Source: a bacterium (GTDB taxonomy: Bacteria > Patescibacteriota > Minisyncoccia > Phycocordibacterales > UBA918). Taken from it: a DNA stretch of 64,000 nt. A program made the translations under genes and the position numbers. The stretch covers positions 8,216 to 72,215 of the forward strand of contig JAYSUD010000008.1 in assembly GCA_043719295.1 (NCBI GenBank), written 5' to 3'. The notes beneath the pieces were generated by a model that was not told where the DNA came from, searched no databases, and saw nothing but the letters and a program-made list of their open reading frames with translations. Positions 1,682 through 43,591 of this stretch are shown here, piece by piece. Position 1 is the stretch's first letter, and each line of letters starts with the position of its first letter.

Positions 1682-3568
1682 ATGTTTGTTATTGAGGTTA
1701 TTCCCCTAAAACGAGGTATCGGTATTGAATCACTTTCCTACTATTCTGCGTTGTCATACAACGCGGGTACTATCATCTCTATTCCACTTCGAAATCAAGA
1801 GACAATGGCTGTAGTAATTGGATTTAAGCCAGTATCTGCTGCGAAAACTGCCCTTAAAACAGCAACGTTTTCACTCCGTAAACTGCAAGCACAACCTGAT
1901 GCACGAACACTTCCCCTTTCAATTATCAAAACAGCACAAAAACTTTGTCTTCAAAATCCTGCAAGTTTAGGTGCAATTTTATTTTCATTACTCCCGCCAC
2001 AGATCCGCAATGGTGAACGAATGTATCCTAAGGCAGAATCGAAGATAAATTCAGAAGATACTATTCCTAAAATATTAACGGCAATTGCATCGCATCGTTA
2101 CACTGAATACAAAAGCTGTATCCGACAAACCTTTGCCCATCGGGGGTCAGTTGTTTTTATTGTCCCTACTTCAATTGATGTGGAACACGCAAAGAAAAAA
2201 TTAGAAAGTGGGATTGAGAGTCGTGTCGTTACGTTTTCAAGTACCCATACAAAAAAGCAACTTGATGCATCATATGAGGCGTTTGAAGATTATCGACAAG
2301 CGAAGCTTTTTATTGTCACTCCAGCGTATTCGTTTTTAGACAGACACGACATTACCTCAATAATTATAGAAGGCGCTGGAAGTCAAAACTACATTATGCG
2401 AAGTCGTCCGTACTTAGACACTAAAGATGCATTAAAAATATTTGCAAAAGAAACAGGGCGTTCAATCCTACTTGCTGATGCGGTTGTTAAAACAGAAGAC
2501 GAAATCAAGCGAAGAGACGACATCTATACCACCTATAATGAACACACAATCCGTCTTGAACTCGGAGGTTTAGTCACCTTAGCTCACCATAAGAAACTTG
2601 AAGAGGGTGAGACGTTTTCACTCTGTACAGCTGAACTTAAAGAGACAATATCCCGAGTACTCTCAAACCGTGGACATGCTTTTTTGTATGCAGCGCGCAG
2701 GGGCTTGGCACCTGCAATTACGTGTTATGACTGCGGTCACGTGTTTCGCTGTCCTGATTCTGGTGCACCATACTCACTTCTTCGAACGTTTAAAGAAGAC
2801 GTAGAAGAGCGATGGTTTGTATCACACACCTCAGGCAAACGAGTACGGGCCGCTGACGTGTGCCCTAACTGTGGTGGATGGCGATTGCGGGAGCAAGGAA
2901 TTGGAATCCAGCAGGTATACGATGAGATTCGAAAAATCTTCCCAAAAATACAAATCTTCCTATTTGATCACCAAACAGCAACTACTAGTACGAAAGCAAA
3001 AAAAATCATAGCTGATTTCTATGATTCAAAAAAAGGAATCCTTATCGGTACGAATATGGTACTTCCGTATCTTCAGAAACAAGTTGATATTTCTGCAGTG
3101 ATCTCATACGAAGCAACCCGCACAGTTCCAACCTGGCGCGCTGATGAGACAATTTTTTCACTCCTTATTACACTCCGCGAACTGACGCTCAAGGATCTTG
3201 TGGTACAACTTCGAACTGAGGAAGACGAGTTACTCCAATTTGCATCAAAAGGACTTATTGATCAATTTTATTCAAACGAAATTGACGTGCGTAAAGCACT
3301 TTTGTATCCCCCGTATTCAGCATTTATTTTACTTTCCTTCAAAGGAACAAAAGATCAAACTGAAGAAATGGAAGACATGCTTGCGCATGTGCTTCAAGGC
3401 TATGAGGTTCAATTTTACAGTGCTCCCCTTTCAAATAAAAATGAAACATTACGATATGGACTCCTTCGCATTGAAGCCTCAAAATGGCCAAAAGCAGATC
3501 TTGTTGAGCGACTTCGGTCGTTACCGCCCTACATCAAAATTGAAGTCAATCCCGATCGCATAGTTTAA
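1682..3568 (+). CDS. priA: Primosomal protein N' (PriA)-like replication restart helicase with a degenerate Walker A region.
   Basis: 628 aa. PriA-like N-terminal 3' DNA-binding region and the Cys4 zinc ribbon CYDCGHVFRCPD...CPNCGG. Reads HRGSVVFIVPT where GSGKT is expected. Confidence 0.7.
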   Translation: MFVIEVIPLKRGIGIESLSYYSALSYNAGTIISIPLRNQETMAVVIGFKPVSAAKTALKTATFSLRKLQAQPDARTLPLSIIKTAQKLCLQNPASLGAILFSLLPPQIRNGERMYPKAESKINSEDTIPKILTAIASHRYTEYKSCIRQTFAHRGSVVFIVPTSIDVEHAKKKLESGIESRVVTFSSTHTKKQLDASYEAFEDYRQAKLFIVTPAYSFLDRHDITSIIIEGAGSQNYIMRSRPYLDTKDALKIFAKETGRSILLADAVVKTEDEIKRRDDIYTTYNEHTIRLELGGLVTLAHHKKLEEGETFSLCTAELKETISRVLSNRGHAFLYAARRGLAPAITCYDCGHVFRCPDSGAPYSLLRTFKEDVEERWFVSHTSGKRVRAADVCPNCGGWRLREQGIGIQQVYDEIRKIFPKIQIFLFDHQTATTSTKAKKIIADFYDSKKGILIGTNMVLPYLQKQVDISAVISYEATRTVPTWRADETIFSLLITLRELTLKDLVVQLRTEEDELLQFASKGLIDQFYSNEIDVRKALLYPPYSAFILLSFKGTKDQTEEMEDMLAHVLQGYEVQFYSAPLSNKNETLRYGLLRIEASKWPKADLVERLRSLPPYIKIEVNPDRIV

Positions 3569-3600
3569 TGAGCAAACGAGTGAGAAAGTCTAGTAGACTT

Positions 3601-3655
3601 TTGCAAGAGGTTGACTACTATTTTGAAGTATGAAAAATACTGACAACCTGAACAG
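3601..3655 (+). repeat. ~50-nt nested-hairpin module (TTGCAAGAGGTTG-[inner hairpin]-CAACCTGAACAG). Related copies at 26608-26656 and, inverted, 28254-28302.
   Basis: The outer stem AGGTTG/CAACCT and the flanks GCAAG...GAACAG are conserved. The inner hairpin differs between copies. Confidence 0.6.
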
Positions 3656-4089
3656 CTTCTGTAAGAAGTAAGCGACTTTTGCATTTAGCAGAAGCAGGAC
3701 GCTAAGCGTATAAGCTTCCTTGGAGGTCGCTTATACGAAGCGTCTACATAAGATACATATAGTCTCACTGTCGTGATACTTATGTATCTAAACTGCTGGA
3801 CGTCTCTTATATTAGGAGATTATGACTCATACGCATAAATATAAAAAGTAGTTTTTCCATAAAATTAGGTTATAGTACAACTATATCTATAGGACAAAGC
3901 TTGCACGAAAAAATCATAATGTCCTCAGGCTATTGCAGAAGAAGTGAGCTAAAATTAAAAAAACACATAAAACTGCCTTAAGAGGCGGTTTTAGTGCGAC
4001 AGAGCATCATCTGACATATACACAAGCAAAACGTTTAAAGCTGTAGGGTTGAAAATCATATTCCAACTGAGGTAATACGCTACGTTTTC

Positions 4090-4215
4090 TGGTGCAGTTA
4101 CGCAGGCTTCTTGTCTGACATCTTCTTTTTTTCTTCTTCACTCATACTTTTATTCTTATCATCGTGAGAGGCATTTTTTTGATTTGAATCCTTGTTTGAG
4201 TTTGAGTTTTTATTT
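4090..4215 (-). CDS. Possible small hydrophilic protein (41 aa, MEQNKNSNSNKDSNQKNASHDDKNKSMSEEEKKKMSDKKPA).
   Basis: Short ORF below the ORF-track cutoff, inside a 760-nt non-coding gap. Low-complexity and very uncertain. Confidence 0.15.
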
Positions 4216-4328
4216 TGTTCCATAATTTTCATATATTAATGTATGTGGTTAATGAACTATCGACCGTCTTATAGTGTTGCCGAGGCAGTGAGATTATTAT
4301 TGCAATTATAGCTTTCTACTAGGTGTTT

Positions 4329-4841
4329 TTATTCTTTATTGAACAACAACTTTAATTTCTCCAGACCCCGATGCGTTTTAACGGTAACCATATTTTTACT
4401 CTGCCCAGTTAGCAGTGCAACTTCAGCTACCGAAAGTTCCTGTACATAGCGCATGTGGACGATTGATTTGTATGATGGGGGTAATAACTCAATCATTTTA
4501 ACTGCAGACGCTCCATCGAGTTGATTTATCATTTTTGTAGATGAATCGACTCCAAGTTCAAGTCCTTTTTCAATAAGCTCTTCAAGCGAAACAGTTTTGC
4601 GCTTTCTATATTCATCAATAATCAAGCAATTTAAAATATGATACAGGAATGGTTTCATCAGATGAATTTTGCCCGTGTTGATCATATACTTCCAAGTTTT
4701 CATATACGCCTCTTGTACCAAATCATCACACAAAATATTGTCACCCACTTTAAAAAGCGCATATTTTTTGAGTTCCATCTCAAACTCGTTGTGAGCACTG
4801 ATCATGGTTAATTGTAGATCAGCTTTTTTTTGCGTATCCAT
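4329..4841 (-). CDS. RNA polymerase sigma-70 factor, ECF subfamily.
   Basis: 170 aa. Region 2 (DDLVQEAYMKTWKY) and a region 4 HTH (LSVAEVALLTGQSKNMVTVKTHRGLEKL). Confidence 0.75.
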   Translation of the reverse strand: MDTQKKADLQLTMISAHNEFEMELKKYALFKVGDNILCDDLVQEAYMKTWKYMINTGKIHLMKPFLYHILNCLIIDEYRKRKTVSLEELIEKGLELGVDSSTKMINQLDGASAVKMIELLPPSYKSIVHMRYVQELSVAEVALLTGQSKNMVTVKTHRGLEKLKLLFNKE

Positions 4842-5119
4842 TTACAATAGCCGTTTTATATAAGTTGATATTACAAAATTTTTTATAAGAATATGGATTA
4901 AAAATGGTATATGAAATATTTTTAATTCTTGTTCGGCACCTATATTGAACCCTCTCATATACAAACAAACACATCAGAAAAGATGTTGGAATGTTTTAAC
5001 GAGGTAGCTATGTGGTGAACAAAAAATGTCCCAACTTTTTATTTTGACTATTGTTGTCTACACATAGGTGCCCAAGTGATAGGAGTTGTACTAGGCTTAT
5101 TAACATAAAAAAACAACAT

Positions 5120-6205
5120 ATGACGTCAAAAATTGTAACGAAATCAACAAGTGCTATCGCCATCTTGGGTATGTTGGCGCTTGCTACTCCAACTGCTTTT
5201 GCGGGCACTATAACTGTAGAGACTAATAACACTGCTGAGGTGACAAATGACATCACGGTGATGGCTCATAGTGGTGGAAATACTTCACGTGGAAGTCGTG
5301 CTGCGCGAGGAGGTGATGGAGGAACTGTATCTACTGGAGCTAACGGTAGTTCTAATACCGCAGGCATGGGGGGTATAGGAGGCAATGGTGGTAACGGTGG
5401 CTCTATAACAACAGGTGATGCAATTGCTACAGCTGATATCAGCAACGATATCAATACTACCGAAACCAATGTTACTGAAGCACACATGACTGATACATTT
5501 AATGAAACACATCGTGTTCGGTCTTCTATTGGTATGGAATACGACGAATCAGCTACTATGAATTCAGATTATGGAGATAATTCATCTCATGAGTCTTCAC
5601 AAAGTGCATCAGAGGCATCAAGTGATTCAATGAGCGAATCTGGAGACAAAGATTCAAGTGCGAGTCAATCAGATTCAAGCACTGATGCTGCAACATCAAG
5701 CAATGATTCATCTGAAGAAAGTGCTTCAGAGAACAGTGCAAGTGAAAGTTATGCACTTGAATCAGACAGTGCACAGTCAAGCAGTAGTGAATCAGCTGAA
5801 TCACACACTAACGATATTTCTGATGTTCGAAGCACTTCATACGACAACACTGGAAGTGAATATGAAAACTATGAAATGGATTACACACGTACCTATGTTA
5901 ATACACAAGGTGACATTATGGTGACAAACACTAATGATGGCGCTGTTGGAAACACCGGTGCAGTTGATGCGCGAACAGGTGAAAACACATCAACAGGTGA
6001 CGAAGGTGCAATGGGATCAGATGGTGGTGATGTTACCCAAAGTGGAGCAGGTAGTACTACAACTACAGGTAGTAACACTGCAGGTAATGGTGCCAACGGT
6101 GGTGCTGGAGGTATGGGAGGAACCATACTCACTGGTATTTCTGACTCACTCCTTAAATTAGTGACGACTTCAGGTCGAACTATGACACGTATCGTTCGTA
6201 ATTAA
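5120..6205 (+). CDS. Secreted Gly/Ser/Asp-rich low-complexity protein.
   Basis: Signal peptide MTSKIVTKSTSAIAILGMLALATPTAFA, GGNGGNGG-type glycine repeats and a long acidic Ser/Asp-rich middle. Start taken at Met24 of the 5051 ORF. Followed by a hairpin terminator. Confidence 0.6.
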   Translation: MTSKIVTKSTSAIAILGMLALATPTAFAGTITVETNNTAEVTNDITVMAHSGGNTSRGSRAARGGDGGTVSTGANGSSNTAGMGGIGGNGGNGGSITTGDAIATADISNDINTTETNVTEAHMTDTFNETHRVRSSIGMEYDESATMNSDYGDNSSHESSQSASEASSDSMSESGDKDSSASQSDSSTDAATSSNDSSEESASENSASESYALESDSAQSSSSESAESHTNDISDVRSTSYDNTGSEYENYEMDYTRTYVNTQGDIMVTNTNDGAVGNTGAVDARTGENTSTGDEGAMGSDGGDVTQSGAGSTTTTGSNTAGNGANGGAGGMGGTILTGISDSLLKLVTTSGRTMTRIVRN

Positions 6206-6215
6206 ACAATACTCT

Positions 6216-6238
6216 AAAAACAGGCATCTCCTGTTTTT
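6216..6238 (+). terminator. Rho-independent terminator.
   Basis: aaaaacaggcatctcctgttttt: hairpin plus T-run after the Gly-rich gene. Confidence 0.6.
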
Positions 6239-6261
6239 AGATATCACTTTATACAGTTGAA

Positions 6262-8700
6262 GTGATGTCTAAAAACAGGAGCCCACACATCAATATGAAT
6301 TACAAAAATATAAAAAAGAGAGCATCACGCACAGCAAGTTTTATGCTTCTAGTAGTATCACTCATTGCACCACTAACTTCAATGAACGTAGTAATAGTAT
6401 CCGCAGAGGAGATAGAAGTGAGTGAAAATACTGCCATAGACGAATCTGCATCTGAAACGAATTTAAATACAGTGAATGTTGAGAGTTCTGAAATAGGAAG
6501 TGAGAAAACTACTACTACAACAACGGACGAAATCACTCCACACATACCAAATGCCACAAGTACAGAAATCGAGAGTTCTGAAACTACATTACAAAATGAT
6601 ACTGTAACTGCAAGTTCAACAGTTGCGATAACAACTGGAGACACCATTGCGTTAGCAAATATTCTCACAATTGCAAATACTAACTTAGTTAATTCAACCG
6701 GTACTATTATTTTTTCAAATCTAATTGAAGATCAAGTATCTCCAATTGATTTTCGAACAAACAATACAGCATCGACTTCTTGTGCGCTCGTGTACTGTGA
6801 AAAAAATTCAGGAGTTGAAGTTGCTGTTGTTAATGATGCCTACATACATAATATATTGATGATTGAAGCACAAAGTGGCGACAATAGTGTAGAGGGCACT
6901 CTGACAGAAACCTCAGGAGCAATTGTAACGGGCAATGCGTACGCAGGTCTAAACTTGGTTAATGTAGCTAATTCAAATTTTATCGATTCTCATTACCTAC
7001 TCATTACACTAAACGCGTTTGAAGATGTACATGGTGACATTATATTTCCAAGCTTAAGCAATCTTTTAAGCAATCAAGCGATGGCACTATCTCAAACAAC
7101 AGTGCAGACTAATGTAGCAACTGTTGAGAATTCAACAAACGTTACTGCAGAAACTGGTGCCAATACCTCAAACAGTTTGGTGACGGAGATTATTACAGGA
7201 CAAAGTATTGCAACAACCAATGTACTTAATTTGATTAACAGCACACTCTCAGGTGGCGAGAGTATCTCTATTTTGTTACGGGTTCATGGTACGTGGCTTG
7301 GAACAATTTTTGGAGGTGATCCGCGTCTAAACATAACCGACGCGGGTGATGGGTACTACTATATAACTTCAAATAACGTTGACACCTCAGGTCAAAATAA
7401 TTCGCTTGTAACCGGCACTAGTACTGCCTTAATACACAACGATATCAAAGTACTTGCGGGCACTGGAAATAACACACTATCCGACGTTGAGTCAGGGTTA
7501 ATTGAGACAGGAAATGCATTTTCTGGGGCAAATATTGTCAATATTGCTAACACCAATATCATCGGTAGAAATTGGACCTTAGCAATTATTAACATCTTTG
7601 GAGATTTTATTGGGAACCTTTCTTTTGGACAGCCTGATGTATGGATTGGAGAAAAAATTGCAGTACCAAAGGTTGTTCAAAAAGGTAGTGAAATCACCTA
7701 CACGTTCACGGTAACAAACAATGGTGACGCACCATCAACGCGTACACGAGTTAGTGACGCCTATGCAGCTTCAAATTTAAGCATACTTGAAAGTTCAAAT
7801 CCGTACTTACTCGACGCTGATAACAAATTGGTTTGGGAAATAGGAACTCTGCCTGCGGGAGCAACATCTTTAATTACGTACAAAGCCGTTGTAACTTCAG
7901 ATATTCCCGCAACTAACATCACAAATGTCGTTACCGTTACTTCATACGAAACGGACTTCAATGATAGCAATAACACAGATACAGGCACAGTTAAAACATC
8001 AGTGGTAGGAAATACAACTCAAGGGAGTACTGCAAAACGTGCACAGGTATCTTCTCTAACCGCGCCAGATGTTTTAGAGACAAGGGATTTCGTTCCTCCG
8101 ATGGTCACTCGACTAAACGCTATTTCACGTGTAGCCGAAAGTACTAGTGTCTCTACGCAGACACTTGTTATCAAAAATCAAAGTGAAAAAAGTATTCCAA
8201 ATATTGTCCTTCATGATTATGTAATAAGTCAAAGCGGTGCACAGATAGCAGACGAAGTCTGGTCTATTGGCACACTCCTTCCTTATGAGGAAATTACACT
8301 TAGTTATGATATTTCATTTACACCAGATGCACCCAATGGTCACTATACGCTTTCTACGGCACTTATTATGGAGGATGCCGATATATCGTTTTATGGTAAT
8401 GGTTCTATAGATGTACTCCGCAATTCCCTACCGCTTGCGGATGAAGATTCAGTTGTTTTCTTATCAACTGCAATGATAGAGAGTGTGACACCAAATGAGG
8501 ACACTATCACAGACGATGTTTTCGAGCCAACCTTTGCTTCAGCAATTGGACTTACACCAAATATTGCAGAAGCTGCAGATACAACACAATTGGCATCAGT
8601 TGCTGCATCAAAAACGAATATCCCTTTATCACTTATAATAATCTTTGGAGTAATTGGGTTTCTCGTTCTTATAAGTGCCTACCGTGAGCTTCGTGACTAA
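6262..8700 (+). CDS. Large surface protein with a DUF11-like repeat region and a C-terminal membrane anchor.
   Basis: 812 aa. N-terminal signal/TM, Thr/Ser/Asn-rich beta-type repeats, the segment ITYTFTVTNNGDAPSTRTRVSD typical of DUF11/'conserved repeat domain', and a C-terminal hydrophobic anchor IIIFGVIGFLVLISAY. Start may be Met12 at 6295. Confidence 0.6.
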   Translation: MMSKNRSPHINMNYKNIKKRASRTASFMLLVVSLIAPLTSMNVVIVSAEEIEVSENTAIDESASETNLNTVNVESSEIGSEKTTTTTTDEITPHIPNATSTEIESSETTLQNDTVTASSTVAITTGDTIALANILTIANTNLVNSTGTIIFSNLIEDQVSPIDFRTNNTASTSCALVYCEKNSGVEVAVVNDAYIHNILMIEAQSGDNSVEGTLTETSGAIVTGNAYAGLNLVNVANSNFIDSHYLLITLNAFEDVHGDIIFPSLSNLLSNQAMALSQTTVQTNVATVENSTNVTAETGANTSNSLVTEIITGQSIATTNVLNLINSTLSGGESISILLRVHGTWLGTIFGGDPRLNITDAGDGYYYITSNNVDTSGQNNSLVTGTSTALIHNDIKVLAGTGNNTLSDVESGLIETGNAFSGANIVNIANTNIIGRNWTLAIINIFGDFIGNLSFGQPDVWIGEKIAVPKVVQKGSEITYTFTVTNNGDAPSTRTRVSDAYAASNLSILESSNPYLLDADNKLVWEIGTLPAGATSLITYKAVVTSDIPATNITNVVTVTSYETDFNDSNNTDTGTVKTSVVGNTTQGSTAKRAQVSSLTAPDVLETRDFVPPMVTRLNAISRVAESTSVSTQTLVIKNQSEKSIPNIVLHDYVISQSGAQIADEVWSIGTLLPYEEITLSYDISFTPDAPNGHYTLSTALIMEDADISFYGNGSIDVLRNSLPLADEDSVVFLSTAMIESVTPNEDTITDDVFEPTFASAIGLTPNIAEAADTTQLASVAASKTNIPLSLIIIFGVIGFLVLISAYRELRD

Positions 8701-8764
8701 TCAAACAACTGTTTGTAATCTGTATATGTATGTAATACAAAACAACCTATTACGGCATACAGTC

Positions 8765-9334
8765 ATGATTAAATCAAAAGTGAAAGTCCAAAAACATGGT
8801 GCAGATTATTTTGAACAATTATGGGAAGAAAGTTGGACCTACATCAAAACCGTAGTTGATGTTGTGCGAGAGCCTGTAGTTATCTTAGATAAAAATCTCT
8901 GTGTTTTGGCAGCAAATGATCCGTTCTATAGCACTTTCCAAGTAGACCAAAAAGAAACAGAAAACACGCTTGTGTACAAACTAGGTAATGGACAGTGGGA
9001 CATTCCCGATTTGCGTCGACTCCTTGAAGATATCCTCCCAAAAAATACTTTTTTCAAAGGTTTTAAAGTGATGCACGAGTTTCCAGCTATCGGACGAAAA
9101 ATCATGATTCTTAATGCACGGCAAATTCATTATCGAGGTGATAGTAGCTCTGAAAAAGTCCCCCCAATTATCCTCCTTGCCATGGAAGACGTAACCGAGA
9201 TGATGGATGTAGCAGAATCGTTTGCAGGACACATAGAACAAGTAGAGAAAAAATTCTTTGAACGAGTTGATGGTTTTGAAACACAGTTGAAAACGCTTCA
9301 AGCTGAACTTGCACAGCTTAAGAGGAAGTCATAA
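8765..9334 (+). CDS. PAS-fold domain protein with a C-terminal coiled coil.
   Basis: PAS-like core VVREPVVILDKNLCVLAANDPFYSTFQV...GNGQWDIPDLRRLLEDIL. The start is uncertain because the ORF overlaps the previous gene; Met31 was chosen. Confidence 0.45.
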   Translation: MIKSKVKVQKHGADYFEQLWEESWTYIKTVVDVVREPVVILDKNLCVLAANDPFYSTFQVDQKETENTLVYKLGNGQWDIPDLRRLLEDILPKNTFFKGFKVMHEFPAIGRKIMILNARQIHYRGDSSSEKVPPIILLAMEDVTEMMDVAESFAGHIEQVEKKFFERVDGFETQLKTLQAELAQLKRKS

Positions 9335-9461
9335 TAAATACTAGTACTACTGTATATTGGCAAAATTAAATTGAAAAAGTTATTGCTGTAACTAAAAAAC
9401 AGAGTTCCGTATGGTTCATTTTTGGGCAGTTTTGTTGTATAGTTATTCTTAACTAGAGATT

Positions 9462-11635: not shown

Positions 11636-11788
11636 GATAGATTTACTTATATCTTGTATGTATACAGTATACAACGTTTATTCAAACCTGTCAGACAGTG
11701 CTAAACCATAAACACCATAAGGTTGAAAACCCCACAGTTTTCTGTACAATAGCCCTACTTGAAGTAATTCAAGTATAGATTCTAAAGC

Positions 11789-12116
11789 TCCGGTGTAGCT
11801 CAGCGGTAGAGCAATCGACTGTAACATTGAACAATGTTCAAAATAGCAGCCTTATCGAGAAATTGATATTGCAAACAAGGTGAATTGCTGGAACCCCCAC
11901 GACACAAGTCAGGGCAATCAGCAGCCAAGCTTTTGGAGAAATCCAATTGAAGGTCCAGAGACTATCCCTTCGGGGAGTAGAATGCTCACAAATGCATTCG
12001 AAGCGCCTTGCACCGTCAGTGTAGTAATACAACCGGTGATGATATAGTCCACGCCATACAGTAACGTATGAATAAGTGTAATCGATTGGTCGCAGGTTCG
12101 AATCCTGCCGCCGGAG
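11789..12116 (+). tRNA. tRNA-Asn (anticodon GUU) interrupted by a group I intron in the anticodon loop. No CCA is encoded.
   Basis: Exons tccggtgtagctcagcggtagagcaatcgactgt + taatcgattggtcgcaggttcgaatcctgccgccggag fold into a 72-nt cloverleaf. Acceptor TCCGGTG/CGCCGGA, U8, T-loop TTCGAAT, G73, and a 5-nt variable loop that excludes Tyr. Confidence 0.75.
11823..12078 (+). ncRNA. Group I self-splicing intron (~256 nt) within tRNA-Asn.
   Basis: CCAAGCTTTTGG (P5-like), GTCCAGAGACTA (J6/7-P7) and ATATAGTCC (P7'/J8-7) match the group I consensus. The intron ends in G. Boundaries are good to about 2 nt. Confidence 0.7.
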
Positions 12117-12132
12117 CTTTAGAATTTAGAGA

Positions 12133-12153
12133 CCACCCGCAAGGGTGGTTTTT
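12133..12153 (+). terminator. Rho-independent terminator downstream of tRNA-Asn.
   Basis: ccacccgcaagggtgg followed by ttttt. Confidence 0.7.
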
Positions 12154-12162
12154 AAAATTCTT

Positions 12163-12184
12163 AGCTCCGGCGGCAGGATTCGAA
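12163..12184 (+). repeat. Perfect inverted copy (22 nt) of the tRNA-Asn 3' end.
   Basis: agctccggcggcaggattcgaa is the exact reverse complement of the tRNA 3' end ttcgaatcctgccgccggagct. Together with the tRNA it makes a ~35-bp inverted repeat enclosing the terminator. Confidence 0.85.
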
Positions 12185-12238
12185 GACCTTGCCTGATATC
12201 TTTTTGAGGTACGAAATAAAATAGTGACAAGGTGTACT

Positions 12239-12268
12239 GGTCGTGTAACGACCGAAATTCCTGCCGCC
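12239..12268 (+). repeat. tRNA-flanking module: hairpin with TGTAA loop, then GAAATTCC, then a direct copy of the tRNA 3' strand.
   Basis: ggtcgtgtaacgacc-gaaattcc-tgccgcc. The tail is complementary to 12170-12182. Homologous modules at 58386-58413, 62436-62462 and 63420-63456. Confidence 0.6.
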
Positions 12269-12282
12269 TAAACATCCATATT

Positions 12283-12291
12283 CGTGGTATA
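12283..12291 (+). promoter_or_regulatory. Extended -10 promoter element (TGGTATACT) upstream of the HNH gene.
   Basis: tggtatact lies ~16 nt before the ATG at 12307. Pattern only. Confidence 0.4.
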
Positions 12292-12306
12292 CTAAACAAA
12301 ACATAC

Positions 12307-12636
12307 CACATGACCCGTAAAGAAACACGCACCTACGCCGATCGAGCTGAGTATATGAAACTCGCTGTCATTAAACGTCGCAAAAAAGTGCGTGACATGG
12401 CACTTGAATACAAAGGTGGAGTCTGCCAAATCTGTAGATATAGTAAAAGTAAACGGGCACTCTCCTTTCATCACATCAATCCCAAAACAAAAGAATTTGG
12501 TATTTCATACAGAGGCTTTACTCGATCATGGGACAAGACAAAAGCAGAACTCGATAAATGCATTCTGCTTTGCATGAACTGTCATATGGAGATACACGAT
12601 GGAATTACAAAGTTACCAGAACTTTGCATTACCTGA
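12307..12636 (+). CDS. HNH endonuclease (zinc-finger HNH); likely a homing-type endonuclease tied to the adjacent intron-containing tRNA.
   Basis: MTRKETRTYADRAEY...CQICRY...SFHHINPK...CMNCHMEIHDG: HNH motif with CxxC pairs. Start taken at the internal Met after the promoter-like box. Confidence 0.7.
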   Translation, partial: HMTRKETRTYADRAEYMKLAVIKRRKKVRDMALEYKGGVCQICRYSKSKRALSFHHINPKTKEFGISYRGFTRSWDKTKAELDKCILLCMNCHMEIHDGITKLPELCIT

Positions 12637-18315: not shown

Positions 18316-18804
18316 CTAAGGTAGTGACGGGAGTTCTTTCCAAGAAATAAGTTCACTCTCAAAAGAAGGTAATGGTGATAAAGGTGTATTAAGGGGAGGC
18401 GTTGCGATTTCATCAATTCGTATATCATGCATATCAAACTGCAGTTCAAGATTAGTAACAGAGTCACGAACCTTCCCTTGTACACGAAGTGTTACAAAAC
18501 CTGCTGTTGGAGTGTGCAGAGCTACTGGAAATACATAACACGTTCCCACGGCACTCGAGGTTGTGGCACCACCTTGGAATTCTGGATTTGCTATAAGCTC
18601 ACCAAGTGCCCTCTGTCCACACCCTTTCGCAAGTGTCTCTGACTGTTCTTTTGCTTCAACACCCAAGAGAGTGAATCGTGCTCGTGATCCAAACGTAGTA
18701 ATACTCACCGTCAGCACAAGCAAGACAGCGCCAATAACAATAGTTGCCATCAGTGCAATGTACCCATCAGAAACTTCCGGTGATTGTATATGTAAGTGTC
18801 GCAT
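18316..18804 (-). CDS. Pilus-associated protein (minor pilin or pseudopilin-like) with an N-terminal hydrophobic segment.
   Basis: 162 aa, SDGYIALMATIVIGAVLLVLTV... It overlaps both neighbours, so it lies in the same operon as the pilin and the giant protein. Confidence 0.4.
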   Translation of the reverse strand: MRHLHIQSPEVSDGYIALMATIVIGAVLLVLTVSITTFGSRARFTLLGVEAKEQSETLAKGCGQRALGELIANPEFQGGATTSSAVGTCYVFPVALHTPTAGFVTLRVQGKVRDSVTNLELQFDMHDIRIDEIATPPLNTPLSPLPSFESELISWKELPSLP

Positions 18805-21800
18805 TATAATTTCCAGCTTCAGTTAAGCTTTCTACATTTGCAATATAACGAAGGTCATACACAGAGACAGTCTCATCTCCTACTCCCGTTGCAACTAAAT
18901 CAGGAAACGACGCGCTGTCAAAGGCCCACAATAGTGAATTATAGGGTGACTGAGGAATACCATTACCTGAGGAGGTTGCAATTCGCATACCAAATTGCTC
19001 AGTACCGAGCAATGTTGCTGAAGGAGTGGCACCAATAGGAAGAAGCGTTGTATCAACGCACGCAGTACACGTGAGTGTATTTCCTGAAAGAGTGATGGTA
19101 TATCCGCCTGGCGCATTGGTAATTGCTGAAATAGTGTGAGCAACAGTTGTTGATGTTGTATTTCCAAGAGTATCTCCTGTTGCATATTTAGTAGTCACTG
19201 AAGATAATCCACCAAAACCAACAGTTGTATCTGAAATAGCCATAGTTATGTATTGTTCAGGTCTTTTTTTAAGATACCGCACACTCATCATTGCAAAATC
19301 CCACGCACGCGTGTCCCCTGCGGCTAATCGAGTTGAGGCTGAGCTACGAAGACGCAAGTTCATCAAATTATTAACCGTATCTACAAAATCATCAGGACCA
19401 TTTTGTTGTTCTACTATTCTAAAGGTATCGAAATACCCATACGTTGTTGCAGCGTTTACGTCAGTTCCGGGGGTACTTTGCCACCCTGCTCCTGTTGCCT
19501 CTCCACCTAAACCTGAAGTCCCTGCATAGTTTTTAAGCTGTACGTCACTTGTGATTGTGGTCACATTCGAACGAAACTTTGCTGCATAGTGGATACCCGT
19601 AATTGCTGTTGAAGATGGAACGGTAATAGGAAATGAAATGTTTGCCGAATGTGCGTACTCTGCATTTACCGCATCGTCGTCGTTATCAAGCGCATAGTAT
19701 GTGGAAGGATATTCAATGGCACTTGTTTGTTGCCAAGTTGCCGTTGATGAAGTTGCCGTAACTGCTTCACTCATTGTGCGCGTATTGGCACAATTAGCTG
19801 CTGTTCCCGTACCCCACGAAATTTCACATAAAGCACTGTTACTGTTTACTGATCCGAGCATTAAGTACATACGATCAAACTGAAGATTGTACACAACTCC
19901 TGGAGCATTAGTTAAAAAGCGAACGCGTACCTCCCCTGTTGAGGAAATGTGGTTAGCCATATTAAATCCACCTATAGAAGTATCGTTGAAGGTAAAGGCC
20001 ATATCTGCATCAGTTGCACAAGTAGCCCCGCCTATAGTCGTTGAGGCGTGTTGCGTCCAGGTTGTATTTTGAAAGTCATAGAGATATATGCCGAACGTCA
20101 AAGCAACGTTTGAGCGACAGATTTCAGCTGAGAATAAAATGGTATTCATGCCAGTGTATGTTTGCACATTTTTAAATGAGTAGTAGAAATCGGCTGCAGT
20201 TGAAATTGCAGTCATAGGGACCGTCATTTTGGTTGCATCACTTCCCGTGACGGTAGTATAGATACCTCCAAGTGTGTCAGAGATGAAGTTTGTCGTCACG
20301 CCGGCTGACGTTGTTGCAAAACCTGCGGGTTCGTAAATTGGATCGATAGCGACCTCTACTTGCGCGAAGTCAATACGGTGTTCAACGGTGTTGTTAACTG
20401 TTGAGTATGAACGGAGAATAATACGTCCACTTGTTGACGAAGCGAAGTTTGAAAGTGGTGTTGCAATGATTGTTCCAGGAGACGTCACACGCGTAGAGAA
20501 GTATCCGTCATATATTTCATAGACGCGTGTTATGTCAGTGGTATCAGTAAGGTTTGCGTCTTGTGGCTCGAGGTTGCGCCAACCACCTCCGGTACAACCT
20601 GCAGTTGCTGCGTTATCAACACCAGTATTGTCTACCCAATCACAAATTTGGTGTTGGTAGTTACTTCCAGTAGTAATATTGCCTGACTCTATTGTCAGCA
20701 AAAGCTTATTTGCACTATAGAGTTCAACATTGTCAAAATACAGCTGTGCGTCAAAACCAGTTGTTGTCCGTCTAAACGACCAATAGTTAGAATCGTTACC
20801 GAGTGTGCCTTTATAGTCTCCGGCGTTTACAAAAGAAGAAGACGAAGCGGTTCCAACTACAAGTGAACCACCTGTTGCAATATACTGACTCCGCAACGTT
20901 ACCCTACTTTGTTCATTGATAAAACGAACACTCATCATCGCAAAATCAATATCGCGAGTATCGCCTGACGCAACTCGAGTAGAGGCTGAGGTACGGATTC
21001 GCATGTTCATCACGTTGTTCTTAGTATCAACAAAATCATCAGAACCGTTTTGTTGTTCTACTATTCTAAATGAATCGAAATATCCATAGGTTGTAGATAA
21101 GTTAATATCGGCCCCTGGAGTACTTTGCCAGAATGACCCTGCTGCTTCGCCCGATACTCCTGAAGTCCCCGCGAAGTTCTTAATTTGAATGTCGTTGGTG
21201 ATAGTTGTCACGTTCGACCGGTGTTTTACTGCATAGTGAATACCCGTAATAGAGGTAGTTGAAGCAAGCGTAATTGGAAATGACAAGTTTGAAGAGTATG
21301 CATACTCAGCGTTGACCGCATCATCGTCATTATCAAGTGGATAGTATGTTGACGGATACTCAATGGCACTTGTTTGTTGCCACGTTGCGGTTGTCGGTGT
21401 GTCAGTAATTCCCTCTGCCATAGTGCGCGTATTTGAGCAATTGGCTGCCGTTCCCGTACCCCACGAAATTTCACACAAAGAACTATCAGTATTAACTGAT
21501 CCGAGCATCAAGTACAGTTGATCGAACTGCAAGTTATAGACGACTCCAGGGCCATTGGTTAAAAAACGCACACGTATTTCACCTGTAGAGGAAATATGGT
21601 CTTCCATATTAAAACCACTAACTGATGTATCGTTAAAGGTAAATACCATGTCTCTGTCAGTTGCACAGGTACTTGCACCAATAGTTGTTGATGCATGCTG
21701 CGTCCATGAAGTATTTTGAAAATCATACACATATATTCCAAACGTCAGCGCAGTGTTTGAGCGACAAATTTCTCCTGAGAACAAAATCGTATTCATCCCC

Positions 21801-22699
21801 GTATACGTTTTCACATTTTTAAATGAAAAGTAGAAGTCTGCTGGGGTTGAAACTGCAGTCATGGGCACAGTTAGTTTGTTAGCATCACTTGCCGTTAACA
21901 GGGTGTAGGTAGGAGGCCCAACCAAGTCAGAGATAAAGTTTGTCGTTACACCCGCTGACGTTGTTGCAAAGCCTGCGGGTTGATAGACCGGGTCAACAGC
22001 AACTTCTACCTGTGCGAAGTCAATACGATGCTCAACGGTGTTGTTAACTGTTGAGTACGAACGAAGAATAAATCGACTATTGTTTGAAGCATTGATAAAA
22101 TTTGACAACGGAGTACTTACGACAATTCCAGGCGACGTCACTCGTGTTGAAAAATAACCATCGTAAATTTCATAGACCCGAGTGTTGTCGGTTGTATCAA
22201 CAAAGTTTGTCCGTCTTGGTTGGAGTGTTCGCCATCCGCCTCCAGTACATTGTGCATCAACCGCGTTATCAACCCCTGTAGTTGAGACAAAGTCACAGAT
22301 TTGATGTACGTAGTTACTTCCTGTTGTGATGTTCGTTGATTCAATAGTGATAAGTATTTTATTGGCACTGTAGAGTTCTACATTGTCAAAATACAGTTGT
22401 GCATCAAAGCCAGTTGTAGTACGTCTAAACGACCAATAGTTAGAATCGTTACCAAGTGTTCCTTTATAATCGCCCGCGTTAACAAAAGATGAGGACGATG
22501 CGGTTCCGACAACAAGTAAACTTCCCGTTGCCCGATACTGTCCTGTTGCAAGTGCTGTTTCTGGAAGTAATGAATCGGCCGTTTGAGTACCTGACCCCAA
22601 ATCAAAAAAACTAAGTCCTCCAAAACCAACAAAAAGTGCCATAAGAAAAAAGAAAGTTCCTATAGACCACTGTACTTTTTTTTCAGAGGATATACTCAT
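18767..22699 (-). CDS. Giant (1310 aa) surface or pilus-associated adhesin-like protein made of two ~550-aa tandem repeat units.
   Basis: N-terminal signal-anchor. The blocks SLLVVGTASSSSFVNAGDYKGTLGNDSNYWSFRRTTTGFDAQLYFDNVELYSANK... and ...ILRSYSTVNNTVEHRIDFAQVEV... occur twice in the same order. Thr/Ser/Asn-rich beta-type composition. Confidence 0.7.
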   Translation of the reverse strand: MSISSEKKVQWSIGTFFFLMALFVGFGGLSFFDLGSGTQTADSLLPETALATGQYRATGSLLVVGTASSSSFVNAGDYKGTLGNDSNYWSFRRTTTGFDAQLYFDNVELYSANKILITIESTNITTGSNYVHQICDFVSTTGVDNAVDAQCTGGGWRTLQPRRTNFVDTTDNTRVYEIYDGYFSTRVTSPGIVVSTPLSNFINASNNSRFILRSYSTVNNTVEHRIDFAQVEVAVDPVYQPAGFATTSAGVTTNFISDLVGPPTYTLLTASDANKLTVPMTAVSTPADFYFSFKNVKTYTGMNTILFSGEICRSNTALTFGIYVYDFQNTSWTQHASTTIGASTCATDRDMVFTFNDTSVSGFNMEDHISSTGEIRVRFLTNGPGVVYNLQFDQLYLMLGSVNTDSSLCEISWGTGTAANCSNTRTMAEGITDTPTTATWQQTSAIEYPSTYYPLDNDDDAVNAEYAYSSNLSFPITLASTTSITGIHYAVKHRSNVTTITNDIQIKNFAGTSGVSGEAAGSFWQSTPGADINLSTTYGYFDSFRIVEQQNGSDDFVDTKNNVMNMRIRTSASTRVASGDTRDIDFAMMSVRFINEQSRVTLRSQYIATGGSLVVGTASSSSFVNAGDYKGTLGNDSNYWSFRRTTTGFDAQLYFDNVELYSANKLLLTIESGNITTGSNYQHQICDWVDNTGVDNAATAGCTGGGWRNLEPQDANLTDTTDITRVYEIYDGYFSTRVTSPGTIIATPLSNFASSTSGRIILRSYSTVNNTVEHRIDFAQVEVAIDPIYEPAGFATTSAGVTTNFISDTLGGIYTTVTGSDATKMTVPMTAISTAADFYYSFKNVQTYTGMNTILFSAEICRSNVALTFGIYLYDFQNTTWTQHASTTIGGATCATDADMAFTFNDTSIGGFNMANHISSTGEVRVRFLTNAPGVVYNLQFDRMYLMLGSVNSNSALCEISWGTGTAANCANTRTMSEAVTATSSTATWQQTSAIEYPSTYYALDNDDDAVNAEYAHSANISFPITVPSSTAITGIHYAAKFRSNVTTITSDVQLKNYAGTSGLGGEATGAGWQSTPGTDVNAATTYGYFDTFRIVEQQNGPDDFVDTVNNLMNLRLRSSASTRLAAGDTRAWDFAMMSVRYLKKRPEQYITMAISDTTVGFGGLSSVTTKYATGDTLGNTTSTTVAHTISAITNAPGGYTITLSGNTLTCTACVDTTLLPIGATPSATLLGTEQFGMRIATSSGNGIPQSPYNSLLWAFDSASFPDLVATGVGDETVSVYDLRYIANVESLTEAGNYNATLTYTITGSF
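19050..22540 (-). repeat. ~1.65-kb tandem duplication (2 units, ~70-75% nucleotide identity) inside the giant CDS.
   Basis: cactcatcatcgcaaaatc at ~20935 matches cactcatcattgcaaaatc at ~19274. gtaccccacgaaatttcaca(c/t)aaag occurs at ~21463 and ~19812. Period ~1.65 kb. Confidence 0.75.
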
Positions 22700-26401: not shown

Positions 26402-26607
26402 GTGTTTTGTATATATAATTGACAATACAAAAAGCATATACCATCGTATACAAAATGTAAAGTTAACTTTACATTTTATCTGTGGAAAAACTTAGGGGTG
26501 ATAAAATCAGAGGATTTATGAAAACGAGTGAGAAGTGATACAAAATCCACCACAAGAGTATTTCCATTTTTATAGTCGTCTTACGACTCCATAAAAATTA
26601 GGTCACT

Positions 26608-26656
26608 TCGCAAGAGGTTTCCTACTCTTTTGGAAAAAGAGTGAGAACCTGTACAG
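26608..26656 (+). repeat. Nested-hairpin module (same family as 3601-3655 and 28254-28302).
   Basis: tcgcaagAGGTTtcctaCTCTTTTggaAAAAGAGtgagAACCTgtacag. Confidence 0.6.
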
Positions 26657-26708
26657 TTCCTGTAAGGAACAAGAGAGATTAAGAAGTGTGCCGTTTCCAT
26701 AAAACCTG

Positions 26709-27705: not shown

Positions 27706-28191
27706 CTATAAATAACTATCAAAATAGATTGCATGGCAAGTATAGCCACCCACATTCTTCTGCAAATAGTCCTGATGGTAACTTTCAGCAGGCCAAAAAC
27801 GTGTATACGGTTCAAGTGATGTAACAACAGGATTGTCCCAACGTTCACTCTCATTCACTACCTCAATCATCTCCTCTCCAATTTCTTTTTCTTTCTCATC
27901 TTTGTAGAAAATTGCAGAACGATACGAAGTGCCTTTGTCATTTCCCTGTTGATTTAAGGTTGTCGGGTTATGAACCTGGAAAAAGAAATCAAGAATTTGT
28001 TTGTATGAAATTACATTCTCATCATAGGTAACAAGAAGTGCTTCGGCGTGACCTTCATGTGATTCATACGTTGGATTTTCACCTTTGCCACCACTGTATC
28101 CAGCTTCAGTATCAAGAACACCTTTAAGATCACGAAAGAGTTCTTCCAATCCCCAGAAACACCCGCCAGCTATGATTGCTTCTTTTTGCAT
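27706..28191 (-). CDS. msrA: Peptide methionine sulfoxide reductase MsrA.
   Basis: MQKEAIIAGGCFWGLEELF... GCFWG active site. 161 aa. Confidence 0.9.
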   Translation of the reverse strand: MQKEAIIAGGCFWGLEELFRDLKGVLDTEAGYSGGKGENPTYESHEGHAEALLVTYDENVISYKQILDFFFQVHNPTTLNQQGNDKGTSYRSAIFYKDEKEKEIGEEMIEVVNESERWDNPVVTSLEPYTRFWPAESYHQDYLQKNVGGYTCHAIYFDSYL

Positions 28192-28250
28192 AGTTATTAT
28201 TATATTAAGAATTAACTTCTATTCTTTACTATCACCAGATAGCGACTCAG
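28151..28250 (-). repeat. Promoter/5'-CDS unit of msrA (copy 1, functional). Duplicated at 28487-28590 and, diverged, at 28321-28405.
   Basis: ~100 nt (ccccagaaacacccgccagctatgattgcttctttttgcatagttattattatattaagaattaacttctattctttactatca) recur nearly identically 336 nt upstream. Confidence 0.85.
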
Positions 28251-28320
28251 AATCTGTTCAGGTTGTCGCTCTTTTTCCAAAAGAGCAGGCAACCTCTTGC
28301 GAAGTGACATTTAGTCACTT

Positions 28321-28405
28321 CTCACCCCAGAAACATCCCCCTGCAAGTAAGGCTTCTTTTTGCATATAGTCTGATATATAAATTATGTACTTCTATTCTT
28401 ACAGA
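28321..28405 (-). pseudogene. Diverged decoy copy of the msrA start (would encode MQKEALLAGGCFWGEK*).
   Basis: On the minus strand reads ATGCAAAAAGAAGCCTTACTTGCAGGGGGATGTTTCTGGGGTGAGAAGTGA, then a hairpin and the nested-hairpin module. Confidence 0.6.
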
Positions 28406-28486
28406 ATCTGTCCACTCATTGGATTTTTTATTTCACTTCGTTCATAAAAACTCACAATGAGTCTTGCGACAGTCCCCCGGACTGTC

Positions 28487-28590
28487 TCACCCCAGAAACA
28501 CCCGCCAGCTATGATTGCTTCTTTTTGCATAGTTATTATTATATTAAGAATTAACTTCTATTCTTTACTATCAGTAGATAATGACTCAGG
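28487..28590 (-). pseudogene. Near-identical decoy copy of the msrA promoter plus first 14 codons, followed immediately by a hairpin and a U-run terminator.
   Basis: Minus-strand RNA: ...ATGCAAAAAGAAGCAATCATAGCTGGCGGGTGTTTCTGGGGTGAGACAGTCCGGGGGACTGTCGCAAGACTCATTGTGAGTTTTTAT. Confidence 0.7.
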
Positions 28591-28633
28591 ACCTGTCAAT
28601 TTGTCACTATTTTTAAAATAAAGTCACCTGACT

Positions 28634-30332: not shown

Positions 30333-30531
30333 AATATGTTCGCAGAAAAATGACTCATAATTGAGTCATTTTTCTACACATTTTAATCACTTGTACAAAA
30401 TCCTATATAACCTAGACAAATGAGTGCAATTCGAGACGCACAAACAAAAAAGGACGAGTCGTACGCATAGTACGGTGAGGAGTATTTTCGTGCAGTGCAA
30501 CGAAGAAGTGTGCCATTTGTGTAGGTTATGT

Positions 30532-31134
30532 TTACTTCCCTTCAACCAAATACCTATACACCTGGAATCCAAGTATTGCGCCGATAATCGGCGCAAACAA
30601 ATACACAAAAGTAAGTGAATTGAGCGCAAATGCTACTGCGGGGTTTAATATTCCCGAAGCGCCTAAAAATGAAGCAATTAAAATTCCGAACAGAAGTGAT
30701 CCTCCTACCACCATTCCTGACATTTGTTCTTTGGCTTTCCCGTATACAACCGATGCAATCCCAAAGTTAAAGAAAAATGCTCCAAGCATCTCAGCTAAAA
30801 AAACCGTCACTTCAAACGGTGCAACTATAGCCGGAGTGACCGTGAAAAAAACTTTTGCAACAACTATTGCGCCAACTGCTCCAATGATTTGTGCAACAAT
30901 GTACCGAATTCCCTCAATACGTGAAATTTTTCGAACTGACATAAGTCCAAGTGTCACTGACGGATTAATGTGACAACCTGATACTGCTCCAATTGTGTAA
31001 ACAAAAAGACCAAGGGTAAAACCTGCGATAAGTGGTACCGCCATTGGAAGTGTTCCTGTAAATGAAACTGCTCCTAACACAACGGTTGCAAGTGCAAATG
31101 TTCCAACTGCTTCAGCAATATATTTTTGATACAT
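30532..31134 (-). CDS. Aquaporin / MIP-family channel.
   Basis: Two half-helix motifs HINPSVTLG and ILNPAVAFA (NPS/NPA), six TM helices. 200 aa. Confidence 0.8.
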   Translation of the reverse strand: MYQKYIAEAVGTFALATVVLGAVSFTGTLPMAVPLIAGFTLGLFVYTIGAVSGCHINPSVTLGLMSVRKISRIEGIRYIVAQIIGAVGAIVVAKVFFTVTPAIVAPFEVTVFLAEMLGAFFFNFGIASVVYGKAKEQMSGMVVGGSLLFGILIASFLGASGILNPAVAFALNSLTFVYLFAPIIGAILGFQVYRYLVEGK

Positions 31135-40620: not shown

Positions 40621-40656
40621 AGAAATTCATTGTAACACCTTTAGCTCAACCGTTTG

Positions 40657-40709
40657 CTGCCAGACTTGGACTCGAACCAAGATAACATCCTCCAGAGGGA
40701 TGTGTCCTA
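40657..40709 (-). pseudogene. Partial copy of tRNA-Gln (anticodon arm through 3' end, lacking acceptor 5' and D arm) ~55 nt downstream of the intact gene.
   Basis: Minus strand: ...gtaggacacatccctctggaggatgttatcttggttcgagtccaagtctggcag matches the intact tRNA from the D-loop end to the 3' end. Confidence 0.65.
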
Positions 40710-40767
40710 CAGTCAAATGAGTGAGCGAAACGAGGAAATGGATATTTCTTATTATTTACGTGCTTTG

Positions 40768-43430: not shown

Positions 43431-43591
43431 ATTTTTTTAAATTTTCATTAGTATAGAACTTTCACAAATGGATGCAATTCGAGACGTACAAATAAAATAT
43501 GACGAAACGTACTTGATGTACGTTGAGGATTATTTTTTGCAGTACAACGAAGAAGTGCGCCGTTTGTGTAGGTTCTATATAGTATAACAGA

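Follow-up and report, generated by a model that had tools for sequence, protein, structure and literature searches.

The spacer of 760 nt between priA and a sigma factor gene in a 64-kb stretch of genomic DNA (the window) begins with a structured, non-coding element of 88 nt, here denoted copy A. It is this element, a member of a large family in Patescibacteria, and not the spacer itself, that is the object of interest. Judged from comparisons among copies and genomes, the family is probably a non-autonomous mobile structured element. It appears to be undescribed, and a full-text literature search found no description of such an element. The original prediction for this region had viewed the spacer as being built from reused structured modules. 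Sensitive BLASTN of the whole spacer against the window and 115 related loci returned matches confined to positions 3570–3670, and the spacer is therefore not a repeat mosaic: its repeat-derived share, one element plus a 17-nt box, is about one seventh, and about 520 of the 760 nt are unique. Homologues of PriA and MsrA all derive from metagenome-assembled genomes (MAGs) of the Parcubacteria, Kaiserbacteria or Nomurabacteria type, which places the window (G+C content about 40%) in a Patescibacteria (candidate phyla radiation, CPR) genome.

Architecture and distribution of the element

Members of the family are non-coding, measure 88–105 nt, and form three successive hairpins on one strand in the order G-R-G-UGAG, P1, GCAAGA, P2, UGAACAG, and P3 (NNNC-UGUAA-GNNN), where P2 consists of a 5-bp outer stem, an internal loop and an AU-rich inner stem. 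The unpaired parts GUGAG, GCAAGA, UGAACAG, and the P3 loop UGUAA are near-invariant. In copy A, UGAG occupies 3581–3584, P1 3584–3602, GCAAGA 3603–3608, P2 3609–3648 (outer stem GGUUG/CAACC, inner stem UAUUUU/AAAAUA), UGAACAG 3649–3655, and P3 3656–3668.

A nested hairpin had been predicted to recur at three sites in the window, and exact pattern matches agree: GCAAGAGGTT-N(20–40)-AACCTGNACAG occurs at 3603–3655(+), 26610–26656(+), and 28254–28300(−), with spacers of 26–32 nt and against 0.00 expected, and is followed at the same three sites by AACCTGWACAGNTNCTG. A repeat finder likewise pairs 3600–3661 with 26602–26662 and, inverted, with 28248–28308. The outer stem is kept while the inner stem varies, as had been noted, and the changes are compensatory. 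A small ACAG-CUUC-UGUAA-GAAG hairpin does recur at 54634–54655 and 28400–28420 (the repeat finder pairs 28389–28425 with 54619–54655), but at these sites it is the P3 of two full copies that carry another P2 stem. Together with P1, which had been missed, the nested and the small hairpin thus form one unit of 88 nt rather than separate modules. A covariance model detects nine copies in the window at E<0.01 (Table 1), and a tenth, with a large insert in P3, was seen by eye at about 62290–62460.

The fold is borne out by comparison of copies. When 103 copies are aligned by MAFFT alone, pairing in the four helices reaches 85%, compared with 73% after shuffling and 53% or less with slid partners. 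For 143 copies in a model-guided alignment, which leans towards the covariance model, 92.1% of cells are paired (shuffled 69.6%, slid partners at most 53%), with 665 double-change cells versus 172 and compensatory changes in 24 of 24 pairs. P1 is represented by at least 45 distinct stem sequences, in which G·U pairs (49) far exceed A·C (3); this excess indicates selection for the fold on this strand, as would be expected of an RNA or of some other single-stranded molecule.

Some structural alternatives were rejected. A closing helix GUGAG/CUCAC between the flanks is suggested by a few copies, but flank complementarity is 6.47 compared with 6.46 for mismatched controls. There are no terminal inverted repeats, the 5′ end UGAGAAAG not being complementary to the 3′ end of P3. 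The element does not qualify as an intrinsic terminator, since no T-run follows P3 and a terminator scan does not call it, nor by inspection as an integron attC site, given the GTT...AAC order on either strand and the three hairpins.

A pattern scan with one genome per species gave at least 115 loci (designated here by L numbers), and among the matches listed almost all are Patescibacteria MAGs, often with several contigs per MAG; L069, L075, and L108 are chance pattern matches lacking flanking hairpins. The covariance model finds 143 copies in 100 sources (the window and 99 loci), with the same core in MAGs labelled Saccharibacteria, Kaiserbacteria, Paceibacteria, and Nomurabacteria. Copies also occur in MAGs labelled Acidimicrobiales, Patiriisocius, and Azotimanducaceae (L011/L030, L047/L062, and L033). 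The Patiriisocius- and Azotimanducaceae-labelled MAGs encode CPR-type PriA, the latter also CPR-type MsrA (50–76% identity), so that these bins are probably mislabelled or contaminated.

Copies differ in their inserts. A P1 insert of about 55–63 nt (CCACAAGAGTATTTCCATTTTTATAGTC...AAAAATTAGGTC) replaces or extends P1 at 26545–26600 and 63314–63365, where the two window copies are 97% identical, and also in L040 and L064, and is shared with Kaiserbacteria loci. An insert of about 75 nt (GCAAAGCTTTCTTTCACTGC...GTGAAAGTA) is found in the P3 loop after UGUAA in the window (62370–62446), in L128 (1094–1165), and in L063, L099, L042, L085, and L066. In L063 it occupies the T-stem of a partial tRNA copy. 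This insert may mark an extended subfamily of P3, or it may be a second, separate small insertion element. An autonomous version with an open reading frame (ORF) inside a loop was sought as well, but unpaired half-elements are mere variants and the largest P2 insert measures about 330 nt (L044). GGGGTCGAGAACACTTAGTAG sequences similar to the third structured repeat described below lie 3′ of elements in L023, L036, L083, and L102.

Against Rfam 15, copy A (3576–3669) gave no match at the gathering score and none at E≤10 with permissive filters, the classes without a match including hammerhead, twister, hatchet, pistol, HDV-like, tRNA, IS605-orfB, and HEARO; in the window as a whole, Rfam recognizes only four tRNAs and one group I intron. 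No match to the element was obtained in plasmid or phage collections, and five matches in IMG/VR, all within coding sequence and lacking P1 or P3, are due to chance. Two all-against-all clusterings of ORFs within 1.5–3 kb of copies revealed no conserved neighboring ORF family; the clusters obtained reflect housekeeping synteny or translations through the element itself.

Insertion sites and duplicated gene starts

The element extends from the U of UGAG through the final base of P3. The target site directly 5′ of it is RRG: G occupies position −1 in 104 of 108 copies, purines or G predominate at −2 and −3, and the sequence farther upstream is random. Comparison with intact targets shows no target-site duplication; instead, 2 nt are lost. 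Exactly two target nucleotides are replaced in nine of 13 informative cases, and two more cases are ambiguous by 1 nt, the replaced dinucleotides being CA, CC, CG, TA, and others. A serine-recombinase crossover at 2 nt was ruled out, as the dinucleotide is absent from both junctions rather than present at both, and so was a long target-site duplication by staggered cuts, as the target from +3 onward follows the element in most cases.

Insertion directly 3′ of RRG with neither target duplication nor inverted ends is as in IS200/IS605. Together with strand-specific hairpins, a non-autonomous nature, high copy number, and the clustering of copies in arrays, it would agree with a single-stranded DNA element of the REP/IS200-IS605 kind, the hairpins of which would be recognized by a chromosomal HUH (RAYT-like) transposase and moved by cut-and-paste at a short motif. 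However, no Y1/HUH gene is present among the scanned ORFs of the 64-kb window or near copies in the 8-kb loci, and IS200/IS605 insertion does not delete 2 nt. REPs are species-specific, whereas the core of the present element hardly changes across classes; nor would such an element predict the sense-only, gene-start-only pattern described below. GC skew suggests that the strand bearing seven of the ten window copies is not the lagging-strand template, which is weak evidence in the same direction. We regard a DNA element of this kind as improbable.

The 22-nt 5′ flank is found again no more than 500 nt downstream in 22 of 110 copies (zero with reversed queries as control). In all 22 cases the flank is a gene start read in the sense direction, and the intact gene forms the downstream repeat. 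Gene starts duplicated in this way are those of tRNA-Asn (several genomes), tRNA-Val, Tyr, and Met, msrA (the window and three further genomes, among them L056 and L088), rnhB (L037, L087), and others. Certain hot spots are used in different genomes by different P1/P2 variants: in tRNA-Asn between GGUAGAG and CA, and in msrA directly after GCAGGAG and after UUCUGGGG. Both msrA hot spots fall within the first 45 nt of the gene, and at these sites, as in tRNA-Asn, the element is always in sense orientation; in L128, a single dead msrA start bears elements at both. The tRNA-Asn gene of the window represents an empty site, having no upstream element where nine loci from other genomes have one. The converse arrangement, with the 3′ flank repeated upstream, occurs in six of 115 cases, mostly tRNA-linked variants. 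A self-splicing intron of group I or II was rejected on several grounds: the target lacks 2 nt, the interrupted copies have decayed next to an intact one, and the only Rfam intron is at 11828–12071. An RNA-only origin of the duplicated gene starts is doubtful, as the copy in L090 includes a promoter-like −10 region.

Some of these features could be expected of a host-beneficial cis-acting RNA, such as a module of untranslated regions (a stabilizer, a processing or termination signal, or an accessory of tRNA precursors) that has spread by duplication and selection. Junctions and fold are under strong purifying selection, the fold on a given strand implies RNA, copy A follows a stop codon closely, tRNAs are enriched near the element (within 600 nt of 32 of 142 copies), and the tRNA-Asn site is shared by the nine loci mentioned above. 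On the other hand, orientation relative to neighboring protein genes is near-unbiased, 40 copies being co-directional and 30 antisense to both neighbors. Gene starts are interrupted and dead fragments left behind, one site holds different P1/P2 variants in different genomes, close relatives have no copy after priA, and P3 lacks a following T-run. A cis-acting role as the explanation for the family is therefore considered unlikely.

The msrA locus of the window bears on a further explanation. On the minus strand at 28146–28630, three copies of the msrA 5′ untranslated region and the first 46 nt of the gene alternate with elements, and the middle copy encodes MQKEALLAGGCFWG in place of MQKEAIIAGGCFWG. 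By manual count, this fragment differs from the native one by eight changes (six in third, two in first, and none in second codon positions; four synonymous and two Ile-to-Leu), and the mostly third-position or conservative nature of the changes suggests a foreign functional allele. L056 offers a second case of a diverged msrA start between two elements. Such fragments would be expected of a passive repeat, spread with flanking gene fragments by natural transformation and homologous or illegitimate recombination, and acting as portable homology that seeds insertions and deletions such as the 5.9-kb insertion described below. The position of copy A at the edge of a strain-specific island and a TfoX-like competence gene within the window point the same way. 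A passive repeat leaves the exact ends, the 2-nt replacement, the reuse of targets by different variants, and the conservation of junction nucleotides unexplained, and appears very unlikely.

We thus return to a non-autonomous mobile structured element as the preferred explanation. Since the element encodes nothing and has no conserved neighbor gene, its movement must depend on factors supplied in trans. The mobility machinery would recognize the conserved fold and junctions, or these would themselves be catalytic, and the strand-specific G·U pairs along with the sense-only gene-start pattern would imply a single-stranded, probably RNA, intermediate. The duplicated gene starts may be made by the insertion process, or may reflect selection, if hits in single essential genes kill the cell and rescued ones are all that is observed; they may also result from recombination after DNA uptake, on which the diverged middle msrA fragment bears. 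In the 3′ region of priA, copy A lies harmlessly.

It is possible, although we hold it only tentatively, that the element is a protein-less mobile RNA with a catalytic fold, or a mimic of the tRNA elbow that a conserved RNA enzyme or a reverse transcriptase of the host would recognize. The likeness to tRNA rests on three features noted by eye: the UGUAA loop of P3 agrees with the T-loop pattern U-G-N-R-A, GG is present in many P1 loops, and tRNA-linked copies add an acceptor/T-like helix. The RNA would insert into the sense strand or a transcript, replacing 2 nt, and would then be fixed in DNA.

Several points weigh against mobility. The element has been tied to no activity of a transposase, reverse transcriptase, or ribozyme, and movement is inferred from comparisons only. 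The tRNA-Asn site shared by several species could reflect old, stably inherited, and possibly host-useful copies, and the near-random orientation fits poorly with obligatory co-transcription. Simple insertion chemistry does not account for the linked duplication of gene starts, which may reflect selection or recombination after DNA uptake. The seed pattern itself fixed the outer P2 stem and both junctions, so that their near-invariance in the first alignment is partly by construction; copies found by the model with the outer P2 variants CUCAU/AUGAG or CCUUG/CAAGG still keep the junctions. The restriction to Patescibacteria, finally, is seen among the matches listed and is not proven.

tRNA-linked variants and the surrounding locus

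A special arrangement is found 3′ of four window tRNAs and of tRNA-Asn in L057, L061, L091, and L109. The tRNA is followed by a trailer with a terminator hairpin, after which both the trailer and the last ~22 nt of the tRNA are repeated in inverted orientation, often with P1 separating the anti-acceptor part from the anti-T part. AAG(A), P2, UGUACNG, P3, and a direct copy from the T-loop to the tRNA 3′ end come next. The copy at 12147–12253, for example, reads inverted tRNA 3′ end, AAGA, P2, UGUACUG, P3, and direct tRNA 3′ end, and L019, with no element downstream of tRNA-Asn, represents the empty state. The two arms are predicted to be able to form a long helix resembling an acceptor/T minihelix. 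A retroelement with a tRNA primer-binding site was ruled out, as the inverted arms continue into the genomic trailer and terminator and not into CCA. The arrangement is not readily derived from a simple insertion.

Near-perfect long palindromes centered on the post-tRNA terminator loop occur at 12097–12184 and 63227–63317, with tRNA 3′ end, trailer, and terminator mirrored downstream. The tRNA-Asn(GUU) gene at 11788–12117 carries a group I intron in the anticodon loop (Rfam 11828–12071, 80 bits), and intron-bearing tRNA-Asn is also found in L009, L077, and L080. A 134-aa ORF (12232–12636, plus strand) starts inside the tRNA-linked element, and its match to HNH endonucleases is weak (E 0.0017, short of the Pfam cut-off). 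The motif TTCTGTACAAT, at 11740–11752 and in L019, L063, L077, and L080, lies 45–110 nt upstream of tRNA-Asn, and is by its sequence probably an extended −10 promoter (TGTACAAT) typical of the group. A tRNA-like pair on the minus strand (40653–40720 and 40764–40831) is 87% identical and 111 nt apart, and only the second is called (Gln).

Table 1. Element copies and other features of the window
Feature	Position	Strand	Basis or remark
Copy A, 88 nt	3581–3668	+	Covariance model, 89.9 bits, E 5e-21; starts 13 nt past priA stop
Copy A, model match	3576–3669	+	Covariance model
Copy B, ~63-nt insertion in P1 loop	26529–26669 (model match 26587–26670)	+	62 bits
Copy C, after codon 14 of diverged msrA 5′ copy; 23-nt insertion in P3 loop	28221–28324 (model match 28220–28329)	−	73.5 bits
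Copy D, P2 variant CUCAUUG/CAAUGAG, after codon 14 of another msrA 5′ copy	28395–28489 (model match 28394–28494)	−	56.4 bits
Copy with P2 variant CUCAC	45314–45411	−	49.3 bits
Copy with P2 variant CUCAUUG	54551–54650	+	41.6 bits
tRNA-linked variant 3′ of tRNA-Asn	12147–12253	+	27.6 bits
tRNA-linked variant 3′ of tRNA-Leu	58314–58400	+	41.6 bits
tRNA-linked variant 3′ of tRNA-Tyr	63346–63436	+	20.2 bits
Unique stable hairpin GACGCU-AAG-CGUAUAAGC...GCUUAUACG-A-AGCGUC	3698–3744	+	No second copy by BLASTN
17-nt 3′ box AAACTGCTGGACGTCTC of 130-nt hairpin family	3790–3806	+	4 matches, 0 expected
Possible partner 5′ box GTAAGCGAC (9 nt)	3668–3676	+	Alignment matches only at 3′ box
Terminator-like bidirectional hairpin CTGCC-ttaaga-GGCGG, A-run before, T-run after	3960–3996 (hairpin 3973–3988)	both	By sequence
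44-aa low-complexity ORF downstream of sigma gene	4098–4232	−	Status uncertain
Strain-specific segment, 5.9 kb, absent from four relatives	3569–9461		priA-def-fmt adjacency in relatives
130-nt hairpin family	1458–1600, 53617–53760, 54286–54445(−), 54428–54566(−)		Directly after stop codons

The genes on either side of the spacer are those originally predicted. The ORF at 1682–3568 encodes a diverged PriA (stop codon 3566–3568), matching NCBIfam priA models at E 1e-38 to 1e-40 and giving no Pfam match at E<0.001, and the ORF at 4329–4841 on the minus strand encodes an ECF-type sigma factor. The two genes are convergent, with the 760 nt lying between their stop codons. We rejected priA as part of the element, as the similarity of its 3′ end to a P3-loop insert is an AT-rich chance match and the ORF is a diverged PriA. 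Folding of 3566–3760 gives −56.8 kcal/mol (z −4.1 against shuffles), a value explained by the element and the unique 47-nt hairpin at 3698–3744. Farther into the spacer, the hairpin at 3973–3988 looks by its sequence like a bidirectional terminator separating the priA and sigma transcription units; a simple terminator scan did not call it, and near-matches in Rfam reflect its terminator-like shape only. The spacer had been described as non-coding, which is true of the element but not clearly of the whole, since the ORF at 4098–4232 may be a small gene; a gene caller placed a 41-aa ORF at the same spot on an independent Logan contig.

The spacer owes its length to its position at one edge of the 5.9-kb insertion that separates priA from def, where convergent transcription units meet. 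In four relatives (PriA identity 92, 71, 69, and 69%), priA is followed by def and fmt after 68–185 nt, without the element. This adjacency identifies 3569–9461 as a strain-specific insertion with the element at its left edge. In the window, def (92% identical to that of the closest relative) is at 9462 and fmt at 10006, and the segment before them contains, besides the element and the rest of the spacer, the sigma factor gene (minus strand), a DUF11 surface protein, and two unknown ORFs. From 3642 rightward the Logan contig and the window are identical; the contig ends at 3642, inside P2, and such a break is expected, as repeats break assembly graphs. In L122 (the 92% relative), another element of about 125 nt (2053–2175) lies between priA and def at the position of the 5.9-kb segment, and has perfect 13-bp terminal inverted repeats TCTGCCCTAAAAA...TTTTTAGGGCAGA.

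Small structured repeat families occur side by side in the genome, namely the 88-nt element, a 130-nt hairpin family, and a GGGGTCG...GTGACCGC hairpin. Past 3670, the sole recurring piece of the spacer is the 17-nt 3′ box of the lineage-specific 130-nt family (AAACTKCTGGAMSTCTC), a fragment of which had been correctly recognized there; it is found in three copies of the family and at 3790–3806, with none expected. Members of this family have a 5′ box GCGTAGCGAC, a long hairpin with a covarying distal stem, a conserved loop CTCAGCGTTAGCTGT, and a 3′ box CTGCTGGAMSTCTCCAA, the latter found only within this lineage (the 92% relative L122 and a same-strain contig, L001). A full member at 3666–3810 was rejected, as only the 3′ box, and perhaps a 9-nt 5′ box, aligns. 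A third structured repeat, GAGAGACGG...AGTGAG-CCGGGGTCG-hairpin-GTGACCGC, is located between tRNA and element at 58195–58300 and 62160–62265. An intergenic repeat pair of about 130 nt (30404–30534 and 43452–43581, 78–84% identical) contains GCAATTCGAGACG...AAGAAGTGTGCC, and its tail AAGAAGTGTGCCGTTT is also present 3′ of copy B at about 26683. A 1310-aa ORF (18767–22699, minus strand) has internal repeats of about 1650 nt that are 70–83% identical.

Relation to known systems and significance

The original comparison with BIME, RPE, and Correia-type elements holds insofar as the element is a dispersed intergenic repeat matching no known system, but the analogy is partial because there are no terminal inverted repeats or target duplication, the junctions are class-wide, and ends and targets are exact. 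REPs are single imperfect palindromes of 20–40 nt preceded by GTAG or GTGG, and are species- or genus-specific. As for REP/BIME with RAYT in Enterobacteria and Pseudomonas, the present copies are short, non-coding, high-copy intergenic hairpins that are often clustered, probably moved in trans, and strand-specific; unlike these, the element has three hairpins, unpaired junctions shared across classes, and interrupts genes at exact sites. RPEs of Rickettsia are structured repeats of about 100–150 nt, found in genes, including RNA genes, and between genes, and are thus alike in size and location. RPEs are inserted in frame and leave a working host gene, whereas the copy interrupted by the element is dead and followed by an intact one; the element is furthermore not palindromic overall and belongs to another host group, a separation made by description. 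Correia/NEMIS, ERIC, BOX, and RUP are likewise non-autonomous small repeats, with BOX forming modular mosaics, but have terminal inverted repeats and target duplication (TA for Correia), both of which the element lacks. IS200/IS605-derived elements (PATE) insert 3′ of a fixed tetra- or pentanucleotide without duplication or target loss, compared with RRG, no duplication, and 2 nt lost for the element. Integrative elements that target tRNA genes or gene ends resemble it in duplicating the gene end, in leaving the gene intact, and in forming arrays at tRNA genes, but these are kilobases in size and encode an integrase, whereas the element is about 90 nt and geneless, and 2 nt are lost rather than shared at the junctions.

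Among RNAs, hatchet, pistol, twister-sister, and HDV-like ribozymes are similar in being 50–100 nt long with few helices and conserved unpaired joints, in occurring in multiple copies clustered with structured RNAs, and, for hatchet and HDV-like ribozymes, in having a defined 5′ boundary. The likeness is by architecture only, as no Rfam ribozyme model matches the element. An analogy, and no more, can be drawn to SINE and R2 elements, in that a protein-less structured RNA relies on trans machinery, with a sense-strand logic, links to tRNA, and small deletions at the target, R2 removing 2 bp at its site. The element differs in having no poly-A or other tail and no known reverse transcriptase partner. 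We know of no bacterial precedent for such systems, and to our knowledge no transposition chemistry described from prokaryotes is consistent with the features of the element.

Patescibacteria have tiny, streamlined genomes, and a non-coding element about every 6 kb of the window, with a core common across classes, would, if it is an undescribed family of mobile or structured RNA, amount to a major unannotated part of them. The element breaks assemblies, dead gene-start fragments could confuse annotation and tRNA counts, and at priA a copy marks the edge of a strain-specific island. The covariance model can be used at once for annotating the family. Exact ends, 2-nt replacement, sense-only insertion in gene starts, and hot spots in the tRNA-Asn D-arm and at two msrA sites provide a sharp, testable signature, and the family could lead to a new enzyme or a new ribozyme. 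If the element is indeed a mobile RNA, it would be a bacterial counterpart of SINEs or retrozymes and would represent a new, Patescibacteria-specific class of mobile element.

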